Positions 24,673-36,509 of a stretch of 47,402 nucleotides of DNA are shown here, one piece after another (the stretch's first letter is position 1; each line of letters begins with the position of its first letter). Under the pieces are notes generated by a model. That model was given only the letters and a program-made list of their open reading frames with translations. It was not told the DNA's origin and ran no database searches. The DNA comes from a virus (lineage: Duplodnaviria > Heunggongvirae > Uroviricota > Caudoviricetes), in the IMG/VR virus record IMGVR_UViG_2531839180_000006; one strand, 5' to 3'. Both the position numbers and the translations under genes were made by a program.

Positions 24673-25137
24673 TTATCTGAGGCATTGCTCTCGAATGTAT
24701 AGCTGTGCCCCTTCAAGTTGTTTTTGCATTATTATCAGTCGCGCTCTGAGGGTGAAATAATCCCGTTCAGCGGTGTCTGCCAGTCGGGGGGAGGCTGCAT
24801 TATCCACGCCGGAGGCGGTGGTGGCTTCACGCTCTGACTGACAGACTGCTTTGATGTGCAACCGACGACGACCAGCGGCAACATCATCACGCAGAGCATC
24901 ATTTTCAGCTTTCGCATCAGCTAACTCCTTCGTGTATTTTGCATCGAGCGCAGCAACATCACGCTGACGCATCTGCATGTCAGTAATTGCCGCGTTCGCC
25001 AGCTTCAGTTCTCTGACATTTTTGTCGCGCTGGGCTTTGTAGGTAATGGCGTTATCACGGTAATGATTCAGCCCCAGACTAAGCGCACCACAGGCCACCA
25101 GCAGGGCAATGATGACCACGCACAGTACGCGGTTCAT
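24673..25137 (-). CDS. Rz: Inner-membrane spanin Rz (i-spanin)
   Basis: 154 aa; '[78 protein letters not shown]' matches lambda Rz. Confidence 0.95.
24735..24917 (-). CDS. Rz1: Outer-membrane lipoprotein spanin Rz1 (o-spanin), embedded in the +1 frame of Rz
   Basis: 60 aa '[24 protein letters not shown]...[29 protein letters not shown]' matches lambda Rz1 with lipobox. Confidence 0.95.
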
Positions 25138-25238
25138 TTCACCACCAGCGTATCTGACCGATGAAATAACCGGAGGCCATAATCACAAACACCAGCCAGA
25201 TAAGAATGAACTTCCAGGTGGATAATTTTTCAGCCATC
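25134..25238 (-). CDS. Candidate small hydrophobic peptide (34 aa) translationally coupled to Rz
   Basis: ORF '[34 protein letters not shown]' preceded by GGGAGA SD; its TGA overlaps the Rz ATG (AAATGA). Below the 60-aa cut-off of the ORF track. Confidence 0.4.
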
Positions 25239-25313
25239 ACTCGAATCTCCCGAATCAGTTTGCTAAAATCAAACACACTTTCTCCTTTGACTTTTCCGGA
25301 GTCAGGAAACACA

Positions 25314-25346
25314 AAACCCCGCTTGGTGCCAACAAACGGGGTTTTT
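25314..25346 (-). terminator. Terminator-like hairpin (CCCCG...CGGGG flanked by A/T runs) downstream of the lysozyme gene
   Basis: plus 'aaaaccccgcttggtgccaacaaacggggttttt'; U-rich tract follows on minus strand. Confidence 0.35.
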
Positions 25347-25435
25347 ACTTTTATTCACTTACGTTTCGCCAGTTCGCAGGATTTCATGTTATCCGCCCGC
25401 GTGGCCATGCCTTATTTTTCAGCAAAATATTCTGC

Positions 25436-25969
25436 TTATCTGTAGATACCCCAGCACGCCAGCGCGCTCTCCTGGTCACGACGGGATACCTGACCGTAGC
25501 AGTTGTTTGAACGAATACGGCAGTCTCTGCCACCGTCCTTAATCCACCAGCGAATCGCCTCACACGCTCCCCTGCGATCACCTGCATTAATTCGTTTATA
25601 AAACGTCGACGGGAAACACTTACCGGGACCAATGTTGTACGGACAGAATGACGCGATCCCCGCTTTCTGGGGTTCGCTCAATGGCACTTTGATGTTTTTC
25701 TCCACCCATGCCAGCGCCTTATCACGCTCAATGGCGTTGACCTGGTCGCATTTTTCCTTCGACAGTTTCATACCGGGAAAAACGGGTTTTCCATCCACCA
25801 TCGTGGCCCCCCGACAGATGGTCCAGATGCCGGAACCATCGCGGTATGCCGTTGTGTGGTTACCCTCTTTTTCGTCCAGAAACTGGTCAAGTATCTGAGG
25901 AGCAGACGCGCCTGCAGCAATCAGCGCCAGAACAGCAGCTGACAGGCCGTATTTGATTTTTGCGCTCAT
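25436..25969 (-). CDS. Endolysin: T4-lysozyme-like muramidase with N-terminal signal-anchor-release (SAR) segment
   Basis: 177 aa; N-terminal 'LSAAVLALIAAGASAP' hydrophobic segment; E/D/T triad context ('EGNHTTAYRDGSGIWTICRGAT'); RrrQ/RrrD-like. Confidence 0.85.
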   Translation of the reverse strand: MSAKIKYGLSAAVLALIAAGASAPQILDQFLDEKEGNHTTAYRDGSGIWTICRGATMVDGKPVFPGMKLSKEKCDQVNAIERDKALAWVEKNIKVPLSEPQKAGIASFCPYNIGPGKCFPSTFYKRINAGDRRGACEAIRWWIKDGGRDCRIRSNNCYGQVSRRDQESALACWGIYR

Positions 25970-26024
25970 GGATATTTATCAGGATGCTACCAATGAAAGA
26001 TACCGGAAAGCCAACTGCAAAAAG

Positions 26025-26339
26025 CTAACAACCCGTAATCGAGTTATCAGAACTGTTAATTTTTATGGTATACCGCGCCTCTGAACAGGGGCGCGTTTCT
26101 GGCAACAGCTCGTCCCCTTCACATAACCCGGCAGCAACATCCAGGAAGACCTGTCTGATGCTCCTTCTGGCTGCTGCCTCATAAAACTCCAGCGCGGCAC
26201 CTTCAACACGGTCCAGCGAGATGTCCAGGTCAAAAATTTCACCGTCAAAGCGTTTTTTGTCCCGTAACGCTAAAGTTACCGTAACTTTATTCTCAAAATT
26301 GCGGATCCCTTTCACAATCAGTTCATAGTTTTGAGTCAT
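26025..26339 (-). CDS. Hypothetical protein between holin and endolysin (YdfR/DUF1327-like by position)
   Basis: 104-aa ORF with GGGGAGAG SD; same location as ydfR in the Qin lysis cassette; family from memory. Confidence 0.55.
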   Translation of the reverse strand: MTQNYELIVKGIRNFENKVTVTLALRDKKRFDGEIFDLDISLDRVEGAALEFYEAAARRSIRQVFLDVAAGLCEGDELLPETRPCSEARYTIKINSSDNSITGC

Positions 26340-26343
26340 TGAA

Positions 26344-26559
26344 TTACTCTCCCCGTGCAGCCTTACGACGGTCCTCTCTGATTTTGAAATACAGGTTAGT
26401 CAGATATGTCAGCAGCCCAAACAGCAGACTCCCCAGCACGCCTATTGCCGCCCACTGAGACGGGGAAACCCTGTCCAGCAACTGCAGGAACCAGTAGCCC
26501 GTTCCCACCGCTGACGTGGTGTATGACACACCTGTTGTGATTTTTTCCATCTGGTCCAT
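26344..26559 (-). CDS. Class II holin (S21/pinholin-like, EssQ/EssD family) with dual-start motif MDQMEK
   Basis: '[65 protein letters not shown]' matches lambdoid class II holins; two TMDs; GGAG SD. Confidence 0.9.
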
Positions 26560-26866
26560 ACCCCGTCTCCCGTTATCCGGAAGCTGACAACAATAAAAAA
26601 GCCACCAGTTAACTACTGATGGCTCTGATAACTCATGCAAGCGTCTCAGACGACCCACTGGCACTACCGGTGAGTTTAACGATACCTTCCATTTGACTGA
26701 CTCACTTTTTATGATGATGCCGGTGCATTTATCTCCAGCACCAGACTTTCTGTCTCAACGCCATACGTTGCATTTTTGGTAATATCCGTCAGCGTCAGTG
26801 CATTTAGTCCCACTGCCAGACTGTCTTTTATGGCCTGGAATGCCGGGCCAGTACGATGACGTAGTA

Positions 26867-27314: not shown

Positions 27315-27650
27315 ATGAAGTGGATTGTGATTGATACAGTTATCCAGCCATCATGCGGAATATCTTTTTCAGTCATATGGAGTAAAATAAAATTAATAAT
27401 CTGGTATCAATCGGATGCTTTCTTACCTCCTGAAAGTATATTTACACTGACTCACACAGGCATCATGCTCAATAACAAAGTGCTACCTGTAACCATTTAC
27501 AACGTAGTACCATTCAATAAAACATTCTGGAATTTAATCAAAAACAGCCAGGAATGCCCTACAAATACAGATAACGTATTGAATGAATGCTTTAATAACC
27601 GTTGCACTCTGCAAATATGTCCTTATGGACTAAAACAACAAAGTCCATAA
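27315..27650 (+). CDS. Hypothetical AT-rich cargo protein (111 aa, Cys-rich C-terminus), anti-sense to the late operon
   Basis: ORF with SD AAGGAAAG 6 nt before ATG; preceded by ~245-bp very AT-rich region; no recognisable family. Confidence 0.5.
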
Positions 27651-27685
27651 GGAGTTTACTCACATCTGACAAAATCAATATAAAC

Positions 27686-27705
27686 AGCCCCTCCGGAGAG
27701 GGGCT
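27686..27705. terminator. Perfect hairpin AGCCCCTC-CGGA-GAGGGGCT downstream of the 111-aa ORF and of the tRNA cluster; possible bidirectional terminator
   Basis: 8-bp perfect GC-rich stem with tetraloop read directly. Confidence 0.4.
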
Positions 27706-27939
27706 GGAGAGTGGCGCTATGTGCCATTGCATGGTGCCGGGTGCCTCCCGGTGAATTCAGTACCAGCACCTGAATCCGCGATTATCCCATATACCTACTC
27801 GCTGATTGCCCCTCCGCACAGGGGGATTCACCATGCCAGTTTCTTTTAACAAACTCCCCGCAAACCAGACAACAGTCAACCGCCTGAATTGTGAGACATT
27901 TAAAAAAAGCCCGCAAAAGCGAGCCAAGGAAAATAAGTG

Positions 27940-28016
27940 TGGCGCGTTGTACTGGATTCGAACCAGTGACCGATTGCTTAGAAGGCAATTGCTCTGTCCG
28001 GCTGAGCTAACAACGC
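27940..28016 (-). tRNA. argO: tRNA-Arg (anticodon UCU), argO-like
   Basis: Minus strand GCGTTGTTAGCTCAGCCGGACAGAGCAATTGCCTTCTAAGCAATCGGTCACTGGTTCGAATCCAGTACAACGCGCCA folds as a canonical cloverleaf (7-bp acceptor, TTCGAAT T-loop, CCA). Confidence 0.85.
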
Positions 28017-28029
28017 AGGATACAGATAA

Positions 28030-28106
28030 TGGACCGCCTTCGGGGACCCGAACTCCGCGCAACCAGCTTCGAAAGCTGGCGCTCTTTCCTGATGAGCTAA
28101 TGGCGG
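28030..28106 (-). tRNA. argN: tRNA-like, probable tRNA-Arg (anticodon UCG by eye), argN-like; non-canonical pairs, possibly degenerate
   Basis: CCGCCATTAGCTCATCAGGAAAGAGCGCCAGCTTTCGAAGCTGGTTGCGCGGAGTTCGGGTCCCCGAAGGCGGTCCA: cloverleaf possible but A-A mismatch in acceptor stem, A-C mismatch in T-stem, G at position 58. Confidence 0.55.
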
Positions 28107-28113
28107 TATGTGA

Positions 28114-28189
28114 TGGTGGCCCTTGCTGGATTTGAACCAGCGACCTGGCGATTATGAGTCGCTCGCTCTCACCACTGAGCTAAAGGGCC
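28114..28189 (-). tRNA. ileZ: tRNA with anticodon CAU (Ile2/lysidine type, ileZ-like; formally Met/Ile)
   Basis: GGCCCTTTAGCTCAGTGGTGAGAGCGAGCGACTCATAATCGCCAGGTCGCTGGTTCAAATCCAGCAAGGGCCACCA; closely resembles E. coli tRNA-Ile2; perfect acceptor stem, TTCAAAT T-loop. Confidence 0.85.
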
Positions 28190-28238: not shown

Positions 28239-29288
28239 TCAAACGATTAAATCCTGAACTTCCCTGACTGTCTGCTCAAAACGTCCGGTCTCCAGCTCAA
28301 CACCAATCGCACGACGCCCCAGTGCCATCGCCGCTTTTACCGTTGAACCCGACCCCATGAAAAAATCCGCAACCAGATCACCAGGACGACTACTTGCGCT
28401 GATTATCTGCTGCAGCATTTCTGCCGGTTTTTCGCACGGATGTTTCCCTGGATAGTGCTGCACCGGTTTATGCGTCCAGACATCGGTGTACGGAACCTGC
28501 GCCGTCACACCGAAATACCGCCGCAAATTTTTATATTCACTCAGCAGTTCCGTATACTGCCGGTTCAGCTCACTGTATGTGCTGACCAGCTGGTGGTGTG
28601 GCTTTTCCAGTTCCCCGCGCTGATGTTTTTCTGCCGCAACACGCGCAAACAACGCCTGCAATTTGTTGTAATCACCCTCGTTCGGTAACTGCCACTGACT
28701 GGTACCAAACCAGTGCGAAGCCATGTTTTTCTTTCCGGTGGCTTCCGCTATCTGTTTTGACGTTATTCCCAGTGATTTACGCGCATCACGAAAGTAAGAA
28801 ATCAGCGGGGCCATGACGTGCTGTTTTAGCTCGCGCCCCTGCTCCACATAGCCATCATCTTTCGGGCGATACGGTCCCTGATAATGTTCTGCAAACAGAA
28901 TGCGCTCTGTTGCCGGAAAATACGCCCGCAGACTTTCCTTATTGCACCCGTTCCAGCGTCCGGACGGCTTCGCCCAGATAATGTGGTTCAGCACATTAAA
29001 GCGCTCACGCATCATGATTTCGGTGTCAGATGCCAGGCGATGACCACAGAACAGGTAAAGACTTCCGGCAGGCTTCAGTACCCGCCAGAACTGCGCCAGA
29101 CACTGGTCCAGCCATTTCAGGTAATCATCGTCGCCCTCCCACTGGTTATCCCAGCTCTCGGGCTTCACTTTAAAGTATGGCGGGTCTGTGACTATCAGAT
29201 CGACAGAATTTTCCGGTAAGGTCTGGATAAATTCCAGGCAATCAGCGTTGATTAACTCACAACTGGATATTTTTACAGTATTGGCCAT
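28239..29288 (-). CDS. Orphan DNA methyltransferase (N6-adenine/N4-cytosine amino-MTase; DPPY motif IV followed by FxGxG motif I)
   Basis: 'LIVTDPPYF' near N-terminus and 'DFFMGSGST' near C-terminus; no adjacent restriction endonuclease candidate. Confidence 0.85.
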   Translation of the reverse strand: MANTVKISSCELINADCLEFIQTLPENSVDLIVTDPPYFKVKPESWDNQWEGDDDYLKWLDQCLAQFWRVLKPAGSLYLFCGHRLASDTEIMMRERFNVLNHIIWAKPSGRWNGCNKESLRAYFPATERILFAEHYQGPYRPKDDGYVEQGRELKQHVMAPLISYFRDARKSLGITSKQIAEATGKKNMASHWFGTSQWQLPNEGDYNKLQALFARVAAEKHQRGELEKPHHQLVSTYSELNRQYTELLSEYKNLRRYFGVTAQVPYTDVWTHKPVQHYPGKHPCEKPAEMLQQIISASSRPGDLVADFFMGSGSTVKAAMALGRRAIGVELETGRFEQTVREVQDLIV

Positions 29289-29438
29289 AGATCAATAAGC
29301 ACTTCTCTGATAGGCTCATACCGCTTTTGCGCAAAGCAGATGGGCCTGAGGTTTGCTTGTGACCCCAACGCATGAGCAGATGGCTGGCAGGTGCCGCTAA
29401 CACCCACCAGCCGCCCATTACCACAAATTAAAAAACCT

Positions 29439-29636
29439 TCACTGAGGAAGGCGTCTGTAACAACCGAACTGATAATCTGCCAGACCCGCCATAACAAGCT
29501 GAGTCAGTATTAACTGGCAGCGTTCGCGTGAAAGGTAAGTATTCTGCGCAATTTCCCCGACGGTCGCCGGTTCGGTGACGCTTAATTCATTAAACACCAC
29601 TCTGGCGGTTTCGGTCATATCCTGCTGTTTTAGCAT
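29439..29636 (-). CDS. Small hypothetical protein, possible winged-helix/HTH regulator (65 aa)
   Basis: ORF with AAGGGA SD; 'VGEIAQNTYLSRERCQLILTQLVMAGL' helix-turn-helix-like segment. Confidence 0.45.
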   Translation of the reverse strand: MLKQQDMTETARVVFNELSVTEPATVGEIAQNTYLSRERCQLILTQLVMAGLADYQFGCYRRLPQ

Positions 29637-29855
29637 GTCTTTTTCCCTTTTCTGGTTAACGTGACATACCAATAACTCTTGTCTAAAAAGCCAGCAAGCT
29701 GAAAGACCGGTATTCGCAACCACCAGCGCGTTTAACGTACTGCATCAATTTTCGAGCATAAAAAGACCGCCTGAGGGCAGCCTTTTTACATTAAAATTAA
29801 GTTTTCTTTAACTATGTTGTATGTGAAATTAGCATTCCCTACTGAGTTTATACAA

Positions 29856-30599
29856 CTAATCTGACGTCACACGCACCATTATACTTACTAAAGAAAAGTC
29901 ATCATCAGGTCCGGCTCTCTCTATACGACGCAAAATGCCATTAGAAAACTTCTGACTATTACTCATCGTATTTGATGTAAATCTGGGGCGTTTTTCCCAA
30001 ACGTTATGAACCCCATCAGACATGATACACAGATGATATACCCCGTTAATACTAGGTAAATCTTTCCATGTGATAAAATCACAGTCGTATTCCATATCAA
30101 CATTTGAGGCTATAGCCGTCGTTAAGATATTTTTGCCCGGTTTATCCTTCAAATCTCTGGGTTTAAAAATATTCTGATCAATTAGCATCTGATGCCTGGT
30201 ATCGTCCTTCGTCAATTGGTATGCTTTCTTCTCTCCAATGCAATACAAACGACAATCACCAATATGACCAATAATAATTCCGCTATCACAAACATAACAA
30301 AACGTAAGTGTAGTAGCAGCTTTATCGAACTCATCATTAACATCAGCTAACGACATAACCTTTCGCTTAACTTCATCAAATACATCCGGAACTGTGTCAA
30401 AAGATAAGCTTGTCAATGCTGAAAGCTCAGCAATTGCCATTGATGAAGCCTGACTGGCACCAGTGTATGAACCTACACCATCAGCTACGGCAAATAAGAT
30501 GCCATCCCCTACAATTTTGGGAGGAAGCAATGAATCTTCGTTGACCCTACCTGGTTCTTTTGGATACGAGAATGATGAAGTCGCTATCAGCTGAATCAT
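29856..30599 (-). CDS. PP2C-family (PPM) Ser/Thr protein phosphatase
   Basis: PPM motifs 'NEDS', 'FAVADGVGS', 'GDCRLY', 'MSDGV', 'DDDFS'; start overlaps kinase stop (ATGA); AT-rich. Confidence 0.8.
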   Translation of the reverse strand: MIQLIATSSFSYPKEPGRVNEDSLLPPKIVGDGILFAVADGVGSYTGASQASSMAIAELSALTSLSFDTVPDVFDEVKRKVMSLADVNDEFDKAATTLTFCYVCDSGIIIGHIGDCRLYCIGEKKAYQLTKDDTRHQMLIDQNIFKPRDLKDKPGKNILTTAIASNVDMEYDCDFITWKDLPSINGVYHLCIMSDGVHNVWEKRPRFTSNTMSNSQKFSNGILRRIERAGPDDDFSLVSIMVRVTSD

Positions 30600-31361
30600 G
30601 ACTCACTCCTTAAAAAAGAATGCACAAAATCAAACGCCACATCATCTATTGTCTGATATCTATCATCTTTATCCATCCTGGTACACTTCGCTATGATAGG
30701 CTTTATTTTTTTATCATCTAAATTTAAGTCCTCAATTAACCGCCCCACCGCATAAACATCAGTCTTAACTGAATACTCGGCATTATATAAAATCTCGGGA
30801 GCCATATATCTTGTACTTCCCATACGGGTACCGATCTCGGTCAATTTAGTGGTATCCCCTTCGGGATTTGTATCTTTTACCAGACCAAAATCAGACACCT
30901 TGTATGTTCCGTCGCTAAATCGCAAGACATTAAATGGTTTTATATCTCTGTGTAAATAGCCTTTCGCATGGATGTGAGCTACACCATCTAATACCATTTT
31001 CACTATTGAAATTTTTTGATCTGTTGTAAGAAGGTTGTTCGTTATTTCGTGCTCAAGATCACATTCTGCTTTATCCATAATGAACCATGGATTCTCGGCA
31101 AACAAATCGCACAAATAAATAGGAACAATATTGCTATGTACGCAATGTGATTGATACACGACCTCCCTTTTAAAACGCCTTCTAAACTGCTCTATTTGCG
31201 CCAAAAGCTCTGGTTTTTCGGGGGCTAAAACCTTTCTAGCATAATCCCCACATTCACCCTTGTTGAGGTTGTAAACCTTAACGTGTTCAACAAAGCCAAA
31301 TGCACCTCTTCCAATCAACTGAATTCGTTTTATAAAGTAATTACCGTGCTGTTCTTCCATT
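30596..31361 (-). CDS. Eukaryotic-like (Hanks-type) Ser/Thr protein kinase
   Basis: Gly-loop 'GRGAFGFV', 'YARKVL' lysine, catalytic loop 'HRDIKPFN', 'DFG', 'MAPE'; AT-rich; start MEEQHG chosen. Confidence 0.85.
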
Positions 31362-31378
31362 AAGCTCACCGACCTAAA

Positions 31379-31403
31379 TTGTAAGAATATCCATATCTTA
31401 CAA
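31379..31403. promoter_or_regulatory. 25-bp palindrome TTGTAAGAATATCCATATCTTACAA immediately upstream of the kinase RBS; operator-like
   Basis: Perfect 8-bp arms TTGTAAGA/TCTTACAA read directly on the plus strand. Confidence 0.4.
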
Positions 31404-31433
31404 CTACAGATAAAAAGGTCCACAGAGTTAAGC

Positions 31434-31458
31434 AAAAAACCCGCATTTAAGCGGGTTT
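31434..31458 (-). terminator. Intrinsic terminator downstream of the Q-like gene (AAACCCGC-TTAAAT-GCGGGTTTTTT on minus strand); candidate tR'
   Basis: GC-rich stem followed by U6 run on minus-strand transcript. Confidence 0.6.
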
Positions 31459-31504: not shown

Positions 31505-32194
31505 TTAATTGACTTTTGCAATATCTCGTCGTGAAAAGGTCGCTTTTTGTTGCGATCTCATTTTCACGGTGCAAATCAAGGATTCTGTATCGAGTTTCTT
31601 AAAAATGTCGCACATCTCACGCCAGTAGTTCGCATAATTATGGCTCCAGTTGTCAGGCTTAACTCCACACAGTCTGGCAAGTTCCTGTCGCTGGTAGACG
31701 TCACGCCCAGTAATCCTCCCCCTGACATCCTGCGCCGCCAGCCAGATTAATTTCTTCAGACGCTCAAGCGTTTTCCCTGTAATTTTTCTGGTGCCAAAAT
31801 GCACCTGAAACTTATCCCACGCCCATTTCGCAATGACCACCTGATAATCCCAACTCGGATTTTCACTGTATACCCACAGCACCCACGCCTTCTGATGCTC
31901 TTCAAGAGACAGAACGGCGCGTCGCCATGATGATGTCGAAAACTCAACCGGACTGACCAGGGCAATTGATGAACCTTTCGCCAGCGATTGCTTTCCCGGG
32001 ATTGGTGGATTATCCCGCGTTATCATTTTTCCAGTCACTTCATCGCGGTACCGGATTTTTTTACGCCTGTAACGCCCTGTATCGAACATGGCATTCTCTT
32101 GCCAGGCTTCAAGCTGACCTTTTGTTGCCCCACTCAAATCAGCGGTGGCGATAATGAGCTGCTCACGCACAAACTGTAAATACTGGTTATTCAT
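31505..32194 (-). CDS. Putative late-gene antiterminator Q (QuuQ/YdfT-like family)
   Basis: 229-aa ORF at the Q position (after rusA, before terminator and late genes); start overlaps rusA stop; family from memory, not lambda-Q-like. Confidence 0.55.
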   Translation of the reverse strand: MNNQYLQFVREQLIIATADLSGATKGQLEAWQENAMFDTGRYRRKKIRYRDEVTGKMITRDNPPIPGKQSLAKGSSIALVSPVEFSTSSWRRAVLSLEEHQKAWVLWVYSENPSWDYQVVIAKWAWDKFQVHFGTRKITGKTLERLKKLIWLAAQDVRGRITGRDVYQRQELARLCGVKPDNWSHNYANYWREMCDIFKKLDTESLICTVKMRSQQKATFSRRDIAKVN

Positions 32195-32556
32195 GCGCAC
32201 TCCAGTTCTGTGATTTTTATCCCCAGCCGCCCACCAGGAACGAGATGACCGCGCACAATATTGATTTCATCAAACTGCTCGTCGTCTATAAGTAGTCCGG
32301 CATGCGTCAGCGCATCCAGTGGTGCCTTCAGGATATTGTCCAGGTCGCGGCGGCGCTTATCCGGTGGCTCTGCAATAATCTTTATCGCCAGCCTTCCGGA
32401 CAGGTTTAATTTCAGCCGCTGCTGGCGAACAATTAGCGCCACATCACGGCGATAACGCTTTCCGGCTTCCGAGATGAAATACGTATTGCCATGACGTCGC
32501 CAGTAGGTATTCACCGTCGGCGGGTAAGGCAAAACAAATTCTATGCGTTCAGTCAT
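32191..32556 (-). CDS. rusA: Holliday junction resolvase RusA
   Basis: 121 aa; 'PPDKRRRDLDNILKAPLDALTHAGLLIDDEQ' matches RusA catalytic region. Confidence 0.85.
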   Translation of the reverse strand: MTERIEFVLPYPPTVNTYWRRHGNTYFISEAGKRYRRDVALIVRQQRLKLNLSGRLAIKIIAEPPDKRRRDLDNILKAPLDALTHAGLLIDDEQFDEINIVRGHLVPGGRLGIKITELECA

Positions 32557-35025: not shown

Positions 35026-35958
35026 ATGCACAGCGTTAATTTCTATTCATTCCGCGTATTGACCCATAAAGGCAGTCGAGCCAGCAAAAAACTTAATGAA
35101 TTGGGTTTAAGTAATAAAAAAACGGCATATGAACTTTTTGTTGATTATTTTACTCTATATAAAAACACCCCCATCGAGTTTGGCGTATCCAAAACTAAAA
35201 TATCTCTGGAACAACACGCTAAACTTCACTTTGATAACTCAAAGAAAATTATATATGGTTATATAAAAGTTGGGAAATATGGAGAAAGCAGTGAAATAAA
35301 AGATGTAAAACTCAAAAAAATCCACTACAGGACAACTGCTTATGATGTAACACTCAAAGAACGTTATATTTTAATATACCTACCAGACGCCCTTGAAGAA
35401 GGAATTATTGCATTCCACTCTTGCGATAATATTTCTGCCCGAGGTGTCCTTTCTGATTCTATCACTGAATATCTAAAAAACAAATTTCAACTCGAAGCAA
35501 GAATCAATCCATTACATCATAAGAAAATCCCTCAATATATTCTCAATTCCGAATTAAAACAAATTAAGGCTCAAGGATATAAAGCACCAAAAGACATTGC
35601 TGATTCCTTTGGTCAAAACAAAACAAACATCAAGACAGACTTAATAATAAAAGCAAACGATGGCATGTTCGGAAGTTTCAGGGATTTAAGAAACAAGAAT
35701 ATAGGAAACATCATTGAGATTATTGAAGATAAATGTGATGCAATAAAAGTAAGCTTACAACTCGGCAGTCGGACTGTCGTTTTCAATTATGAGACCATAC
35801 TAAAAAAAGGAATTTCTGCAGAGTTAGATGATAATGATTTAAAAATCGACCCATTAACAGGCATACCTGATCTAACAGCACTTCATGACACGATAAAAAA
35901 CCTTTCTAATGATATATTGTTAGAACTGCATAGCGGAAACAAAGGGGTGATTATATGA
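35026..35958 (+). CDS. Hypothetical soluble protein (310 aa), first gene of an AT-rich two-gene cassette; candidate sensor component
   Basis: Long ORF with SD AAAAGGA; very low GC compared with flanking phage genes; no recognisable catalytic motif by eye. Confidence 0.6.
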   Translation: MHSVNFYSFRVLTHKGSRASKKLNELGLSNKKTAYELFVDYFTLYKNTPIEFGVSKTKISLEQHAKLHFDNSKKIIYGYIKVGKYGESSEIKDVKLKKIHYRTTAYDVTLKERYILIYLPDALEEGIIAFHSCDNISARGVLSDSITEYLKNKFQLEARINPLHHKKIPQYILNSELKQIKAQGYKAPKDIADSFGQNKTNIKTDLIIKANDGMFGSFRDLRNKNIGNIIEIIEDKCDAIKVSLQLGSRTVVFNYETILKKGISAELDDNDLKIDPLTGIPDLTALHDTIKNLSNDILLELHSGNKGVII

Positions 35959-36509
35959 ATAAAATAAATGTGCTGGGTGTAATAATAAAACACTACAAAA
36001 CAATGTCAGATCAGCGTGGAACAATGTTGATGAGCGACATTATCGTACATTTTATTGTTCCGTTATCTCTTTCTTTCGTTCTGTGCCGGACATACGGAAT
36101 AATGAAACCGGCAATTGCTTCCGTCTTCGTTAACTTCGGGGCTATTACAACAGCACTATTAATGAGTGCAGTAATAATGATTTATGAACAAAAACAAAAA
36201 ACCATCACTAAGATATCAGACATAATTGAAGGAAACAAATCCCGAGACAAATTGATATCATTAAACACTAACAAAACCATATATGAGCAGTTATGCCACA
36301 ACGTCGCTTATGCAATATTAACTTCAATAGTATTGGTTATATTTTCAGTGATAATATATTTCCTGCCTGACAATGCAGTGGATTTAATGAAATGGTATTT
36401 TCGCGCACCTGCATATATTGTTAGCTTTTTAGCCTATACATCCTTTTTTATCACTGTTATAACGTTCTTAATGGTAATAAAAAGATTTAGCACAATTTTA
36501 GATAATTGA
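35955..36509 (+). CDS. Hypothetical integral membrane protein (184 aa, ~4 predicted TM helices), second gene of the cassette; candidate membrane effector
   Basis: Four hydrophobic ~20-aa segments; start overlaps upstream stop (ATGA); SD AAAGGGGTGA. Confidence 0.6.
   Translation: MNKINVLGVIIKHYKTMSDQRGTMLMSDIIVHFIVPLSLSFVLCRTYGIMKPAIASVFVNFGAITTALLMSAVIMIYEQKQKTITKISDIIEGNKSRDKLISLNTNKTIYEQLCHNVAYAILTSIVLVIFSVIIYFLPDNAVDLMKWYFRAPAYIVSFLAYTSFFITVITFLMVIKRFSTILDN

Follow-up and report, generated by a model that had tools for sequence, protein, structure and literature searches.

An M.EcoGII-family adenine methylase of predicted non-specificity, behind a conserved winged-helix ORF and structured leader, in a lambdoid prophage

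A methyltransferase gene that a tailed phage carries without an endonuclease beside it raises two questions: which bases does the enzyme mark, and what does the phage gain from the mark? Here, we took up both questions for IMG/VR virus record IMGVR_UViG_2531839180_000006 (Duplodnaviria; Heunggongvirae; Uroviricota; Caudoviricetes). The whole 47,402-nucleotide stretch of DNA that was analysed is called the window below. Integrase and replication genes, Q, the lysis genes and those for terminase, portal, capsid and tail follow one another in normal order, and the window is apparently a complete lambdoid prophage. The gene in question is the following.

28239..29288, minus strand: methylase, a predicted M.EcoGII-family beta-class N6-adenine DNA methyltransferase of 349 aa (ORF, Pfam, motifs and alignment)

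In the raw sequence, the ATG occupies 29288-29286 and the stop codon 28241-28239 on the minus strand, and the ORF listing gives a single intact ORF with an ATG start at this place, whose start codon is shared with the homologues (MxNTVKI...). With Pfam PF01555 (N6_N4_Mtase), the protein scored 153.3 bits over residues 29-340 (cut-off 26.7, E 1.2e-44), which is far beyond chance. The catalytic motif, DPPY (residues 35-38), comes before the SAM motif, FMGSG (residues 310-314), which is the order of the beta class. The first-pass annotation had described a 349-aa amino-methyltransferase with DPPY followed by FxGxG, a description that the ORF, the PF01555 match and the motif positions bear out. 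The best relatives of solved structure by sequence were the beta-class enzymes M.RsrI, CcrM and M.MboIIA, with similarity confined to the catalytic core. The NCBIfam matches were all below threshold (CcrM, 73.7 bits with a cut-off of 830; PRK11524, 108.9 bits with a cut-off of 292), and a chromosomal orphan methylase of the CcrM or YhdJ type was ruled out on these scores, which are far under the equivalog cut-offs. Dam-type methylases, a class tied to GATC specificity, carry FxGxG N-terminal to DPPY. A Dam-type (GATC) orphan methylase as found in Stx phages was ruled out as well, because DPPY precedes FxGxG in the window protein.

The target-recognition region of the methylase is helical, at about residues 146-254. 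AlphaFold placed helices at residues 146-172, 176-183, 189-193, 203-222 and 237-254, with a pLDDT of 82-94 in 10-residue blocks from 151 to 250. Averaged over the whole model, the pLDDT was 68, and the catalytic core was poor, probably owing to a shallow alignment in which all members are at least 74% identical; the model was used for the helical recognition region alone and kept out of the fold searches.

We then considered the neighbourhood of the gene, in which the following features recur below.

31505..32200, minus strand: late-gene antiterminator Q (PF06323, E 4e-84)
31437..31458, minus strand: candidate tR', an intrinsic-terminator-like hairpin with a U-run, 47 nt past the Q stop
29856..31435, minus strand: two genes of low GC (about 38%) inserted downstream of Q and ahead of the methylase module, to which they do not belong
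30596..31435, minus strand: Ser/Thr kinase (RefSeq has a 254-aa version in the near-identical E275a prophage)
29856..30599, minus strand: PP2C phosphatase
29439..29636, minus strand: 65-aa winged-helix-like ORF, phrog_331 (RefSeq 'TrmB family transcriptional regulator' or 'hypothetical')
27940..28189, minus strand: three tRNA genes (CAT anticodon, Arg-TCG, Arg-TCT), 49 nt past the methylase stop
24673..26664, minus strand: lysis cassette (P21-type holin, DUF1327/YdfR, lysozyme, Rz)

The methylase is flanked upstream by the 65-aa ORF, the PP2C phosphatase, the Ser/Thr kinase and Q, and downstream by the tRNAs, an IraM-like ORF, DUF1737, the holin and the lysozyme. Pfam found no restriction-endonuclease domain in these flanking genes, nor in ten ORFs of the early and replication side and one beyond the lysis genes. 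The two of these additional ORFs that had no Pfam match were likewise empty in PADLOC, whose matches were to methylase models only. The claim that no endonuclease candidate neighbours the gene thus stands, both for the flanks and for the other ORFs tested with Pfam and PADLOC, and a Type II restriction-modification system was ruled out since no cognate endonuclease gene is adjacent or among those ORFs. At 35026..36509 (plus strand), adjacent ORFs of 310 aa and 184 aa with no Pfam or PADLOC match run opposite to the neighbouring early-region genes; this pair lies 5.7 kb from the methylase, in a different transcription unit.

The specificity of the M.EcoGI/M.EcoGII family was settled between 2012 and 2018, and the family and its activity are already known. 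M.EcoGII is a 349-aa beta-class enzyme from a prophage of E. coli O104:H4 that methylates adenine in any context in dsDNA, ssDNA, RNA and DNA:RNA hybrids, and its paralogue M.EcoGI likewise modifies adenine in any sequence context (Murray et al., PMC5778455). The window protein resembles M.EcoGII and M.EcoGI in its 349 aa, the beta-class motif order, the helical recognition region, the charged linkers, its carriage by a prophage and the lack of an endonuclease partner. The M.EcoGII sequence was taken from the machine-read supplement of the SUPREM paper (PMC11551740), which holds a few evident misreads and leaves about 1% uncertainty on identity. Against this copy, the window protein aligned gap-free over its full length, with 316/349 identical residues uncorrected and 320/349 (91.7%) after three misreads were fixed. 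The enzyme of phage 1720a-02, named as a very similar M.EcoGII homologue (Murray et al., PMC5778455), was identical to the same copy at 330/352 positions, which fits that description and so supports the validity of the machine-read sequence. A full-text literature search for an M.EcoGII peptide returned nothing, and an exact-sequence look-up gave no match for the window protein or for the corrected M.EcoGII copy.

The differences from M.EcoGII, about 29 substitutions, lie mostly in residues 145-219, and 65 of the 78 residues in the recognition-domain segment 160-237 are identical. Segment 135-260, described in M.EcoGII as a helical recognition domain with a helix-turn-helix and charged linkers, contains no indels, with K+R / D+E counts of 19/14 in the window protein vs 20/13 in M.EcoGII, and the two proteins have the same charge balance over linker and recognition region. 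The proposed dimer-interface segments, 97-110 and 116-140, are identical to those of M.EcoGII and of the reconstructed ancestor Anc291 except at positions 98 (N in the window protein and Anc291, S in the machine-read M.EcoGII copy) and 103 (I in the window protein, 'H' in the machine-read M.EcoGII and Anc291 copies, an evident misread). Over the whole protein, 298 of 351 residues (85%) are shared with Anc291 and 250 of 352 (71%) with SUPREM. All the expressed ancestors methylated DNA and RNA, and Nanopore RNA sequencing found Anc291 and SUPREM to be still largely non-sequence-specific (PMC11551740). Moreover, homologues from STEC at 92-93% similarity are, going by their likeness to M.EcoGI/GII as entered in REBASE, predicted to be 'nonspecific', and lysogen methylomes gain no detectable motif from them (PMC6602927). 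Among enzymes with confirmed site specificity, the one reported closest to M.EcoGII is M.PflMI, which recognises CCANNNNNTGG; going by its published description, its predicted overall fold is similar to that of M.EcoGII, while it is about 27% identical and has no charged linker.

Taken together, the gap-free identity of about 92% to M.EcoGII, the behaviour of the ancestors, the distance of M.PflMI and the 'nonspecific' homologues place the window protein, as far as its sequence tells, well inside the non-specific clade. The first-pass annotation had given target specificity as unknown, a statement that the likeness to an adenine methylase of any context contradicts. Functional analogues in the broad modification of temperate-phage DNA are Mom of phage Mu and promiscuous alpha-class adenine methylases such as M.HaeV; these differ in being unrelated proteins or members of another class, the alpha class having FxGxG first, and the chemistry of Mom is unlike that of the window methylase. 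Hia5 also is a promiscuous alpha-class adenine methylase. M.EcoGII itself is already a commercial reagent, used for chromatin footprinting.

The same annotation had put the gene in the late operon, and here synteny agrees. On the minus strand, the order is RusA, Q, hairpin, kinase and phosphatase, 65-aa ORF, leader, methylase and three tRNAs, followed by STnc100 and the IraM-like ORF (a second low-GC island), holin, lysozyme, Rz, terminase and structural genes. The methylase thus shares the strand of Q, which lies about 2.2 kb upstream, and precedes both the lysis cassette and the structural genes. The arrangement, which runs Q, (insertions), small ORF, methylase, (tRNAs / stx) and lysis genes, is kept in phiP27, 1720a-02, SfV, mEp460 and the E275a prophage, and recurs at loci of Klebsiella, Salmonella and Erwinia, among which three different Q families occur. 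Behind Q in SfV and mEp460, small ORF and methylase come first and stand directly before the holin; SfV has an annotated terminator ahead of them, and mEp460 has one extra small ORF. Terminator-like hairpins follow both Q and the small ORF in the window, and the coding strand from the phosphatase gene to the methylase showed no promoter-like site. A weak promoter-like sequence, TTGCAA-17-TACATT, which was read by eye and agrees with the consensus at 8 of 12 positions, overlaps the end of Q and is a candidate pR'. No annotated pR' or tR' could be recovered from known phages, with which only the 5' part of this Q gene is shared.

Given the conserved position and the lack of a near promoter, together with the hairpins, the methylase would be transcribed only by Q-modified polymerase, after induction; such timing fits the silence and toxicity reported for the M.EcoGII family. 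M.EcoGII is unexpressed in its lysogen, and slows growth or is harmful once expressed (Murray et al., PMC5778455). M.EcoGI, too, is silent in its lysogen, and a 2025 review again describes these methylases as 'silent in lysogens and toxic'. A methylome comparison of lysogen and cured strain would probably show nothing, given the silence of both M.EcoGI and M.EcoGII in their lysogen, and would wrongly seem to refute activity.

We therefore propose, with good though not complete confidence, that the gene encodes a non-specific methylase of the M.EcoGI/M.EcoGII clade whose Q-dependent late expression marks progeny DNA with m6A against restriction. By homology, the enzyme would bind nucleic acid through its helical recognition domain and charged linkers, making no base-specific contacts, and would flip out adenines and methylate N6 in essentially any context. 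Blanket methylation would be toxic to the lysogen, and there the gene would stay silent within the Q-dependent late unit behind the terminator-like hairpins. After induction, Q-modified RNA polymerase would read through from pR' and the methylase would be made, so that progeny genomes would become heavily m6A-marked before packaging, and in the next host these marks would shield them from defences that take a lack of adenine methylation as a sign of foreign DNA, among them Type I, Type III and many Type II systems. The proposal takes gene integrity, family membership by sequence, the lack of a partner endonuclease and the conserved position and strand from our own analysis, and non-specificity, lysogen silence and toxicity from the literature on close homologues; late expression of the window copy and a benefit against restriction are inferred. 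Shielding phage DNA from restriction, a role that the first-pass annotation had named as well, is what the authors who have studied the family favour (PMC5778455, 2025 review), and our literature searches returned no in-vivo anti-restriction or induction study of the M.EcoGII family. Plasmid DNA modified by M.EcoGII transforms E. coli 4-5 orders of magnitude worse (Murray et al., PMC5778455), which indicates that heavy m6A may carry costs.

Three other explanations were weighed against this proposal. The enzyme could be a site-specific orphan methyltransferase in which differences in the recognition domain create a defined target, as might be argued from the 13 of 78 recognition-domain residues that differ from M.EcoGII and from the name 'site-specific DNA-methyltransferase' that RefSeq gives the homologues by automatic naming. 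We regard this as very improbable, since the alignment with M.EcoGII needs neither insertions nor deletions and many of the differing positions carry the residue of Anc291, an ancestor that methylated DNA and RNA and was largely non-sequence-specific on RNA. The nearest site-specific relative reported is the 27% identical M.PflMI with no charged linker, and homologues that have diverged to a similar extent are listed as predicted nonspecific (PMC6602927). A decaying, non-functional remnant in a defective prophage seems even more improbable. The host element of M.EcoGII is indeed a cryptic prophage with the gene unexpressed (Murray et al., PMC5778455), and the databases hold truncated copies of 302-336 aa; the window ORF, however, is full length with both catalytic motifs present, the family persists in many genera with 64-94% identity, and the prophage genes around the ORF, from integrase to tail, stand in normal order.

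Somewhat less remote, although still unlikely, is that the enzyme is non-specific and serves chiefly another purpose, either host shutdown or reprogramming through hypermethylation of the chromosome or RNA, or marking of phage DNA for replication, packaging or late-gene control. M.EcoGII is toxic and acts on ssDNA, RNA and DNA:RNA hybrids, other phage orphan methylases have life-cycle functions, e.g. P1 Dam at pac sites (2025 review), and the winged-helix partner and structured leader, both conserved, hint at regulated use. However, many closely related lambdoid phages lack the family, which makes an essential life-cycle function unlikely, and the authors who studied the enzyme prefer anti-restriction. 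The anti-restriction role and these other roles are not mutually exclusive.

Besides the 65-aa ORF, two elements lie directly upstream of the methylase.

29289..29438, minus strand: conserved non-coding leader of 150 nt, from the small ORF to the methylase
29382..29412, minus strand: GC-rich conserved hairpin in the leader, GGCUGGUGGGUG-UUAGCGG-CACCUGCCAGCC, about -23 kcal/mol

In 57 of 78 loci, namely the species-representative loci with upstream sequence included, a homologue of the 65-aa ORF (38-98% identity) precedes the methylase at a distance of 83-154 nt. The pairing of small ORF and methylase extends from Escherichia through Xenorhabdus and Photorhabdus and is also present in phages SfV, mEp460, phiP27 and 1720a-02. 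As far as the ORF itself goes, there is a cdtI homologue, too. The 65-aa protein gave weak but consistent winged-helix matches (DprA_WH, TrmB). The best of five structure models reached a pLDDT of 89 and was a canonical winged helix (the other four, 58-67), and its matches were generic, including IclR, MarR and ArsR regulators and the dimerisation domains of O-methyltransferases. An m6A-reading winged helix like that of DpnI received no support, fold and profile searches giving generic winged-helix matches only.

No Rfam family matches the 150-nt leader. Its hairpin lies about 30 nt past the stop of the small ORF and is extended by AUGGGC/GCUCAU in the minimum-free-energy fold; across 47 distinct leaders, the median was 13 pairs and -22 kcal/mol, and for 35 of these leaders the fold of the first part beat dinucleotide shuffles by over 2 standard deviations. 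In Xenorhabdus, the leader has a different stem sequence, often followed by a U-run, and looks terminator-like. RNAalifold on 34 Enterobacteriaceae-type leaders gave a covariation contribution near nil (-0.26 kcal/mol, 3 compensatory pairs), because these leaders are too similar to one another; the evidence for the hairpin is therefore the folding of individual sequences, the shuffles and the different Xenorhabdus stems. No recognisable Shine-Dalgarno sequence precedes the methylase ATG, and the last 15 nt before it, GCTTAnTGATCT, are kept across genera (29289..29310, minus strand); a predicted pairing joins them to a leader segment further upstream. Given the missing Shine-Dalgarno sequence and the leader pairing, translation of the methylase may be low or regulated.

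In the literature searched, we found no description of the winged-helix ORF or of a leader paired with the methylase, and this conserved context may be the sole new part of the locus. Tentatively, the winged-helix protein, the structured leader and the methylase could form an undescribed module that gates the toxic methylase or helps to handle m6A-marked DNA, a suggestion that we hold well short of even confidence. The gating role proposed for the winged-helix protein and/or the leader RNA is similar to that of the controller proteins of restriction-modification systems, whose fold differs. As a working hypothesis, such a module might time or insulate methylase expression. In practical terms, the winged-helix partner and structured leader offer a concrete and cheap way into how phages control a toxic methylase.

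The window methylase is one more allele of a very common and already characterised prophage gene. Its best DNA match, at 99.8%, is a lambdoid prophage adjoining ompW in E. coli strain E275a. At 82-89% identity, the gene matched 38 phage records, mostly Stx2 phages and also phiP27 and 1720a-02, and the gene family is present in 1940 of 5426 complete E. coli genomes (about 36%) and at 231 loci in GTDB species-representative genomes, with 64-94% identity across many genera. Between proteins, 321/352 residues are identical to phiP27 (L24) and 311/352 to 1720a-02, with about 81% identity to SfV (orf48) and mEp460 (gp53). The methylases of phiP27, 1720a-02, SfV, mEp460 and the Stx2a/Stx2c phages belong to the same family and occupy the same slot between Q and the lysis/stx genes, behind the same small upstream ORF as in the window. 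The main value of the present analysis is a corrected record for this window, in which the activity of the methylase becomes predictable, namely all adenines. The wide spread (~36% of complete E. coli genomes, many Stx phages, 231 GTDB loci) is worth noting in its own right, and suggests that blanket adenine methylation is a common restriction escape for lambdoid phages.

The window prophage differs from the phages of this group in having no stx, in the kinase/phosphatase insertion upstream of the methylase, and in the IraM-like ORF and STnc100 downstream. Its tRNA trio stands in the Stx-phage tRNA position, which is upstream of stx there. ARAGORN called the tRNA at 28114..28189 (minus strand) Met (CAT); RefSeq annotates the equivalent gene in E275a and phiP27 as tRNA-Ile (ileZ-like). 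Just downstream of the tRNA cluster, 27676..27865 (minus strand) matches the Rfam sRNA STnc100 (RF02076) with 132 bits against a gathering score of 47 and ends in a terminator hairpin. On the opposite strand, an island of 32-35% GC holds a 111-aa ORF of phrog_4407 (27315..27650, plus strand), which by position is the gene that RefSeq annotates as anti-adapter protein IraM in E275a and which sits where toxin genes stand in Stx phages. Upstream of the methylase, a terminator-like hairpin at about 29757..29785, read by eye, follows the kinase/phosphatase insertion. The near-identical E275a prophage carries an IS2 between the phosphatase gene and the small ORF, in an interval (L001 18384..19612) that is the counterpart of 29637..29855 of the window, where IS2 is absent. 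Among anti-phage defence models, mad6, PD-T4-6 and Stk2 match the Ser/Thr kinase (E 3e-40 to 6e-28), and the kinase and phosphatase may form a prophage-borne defence or exclusion pair.
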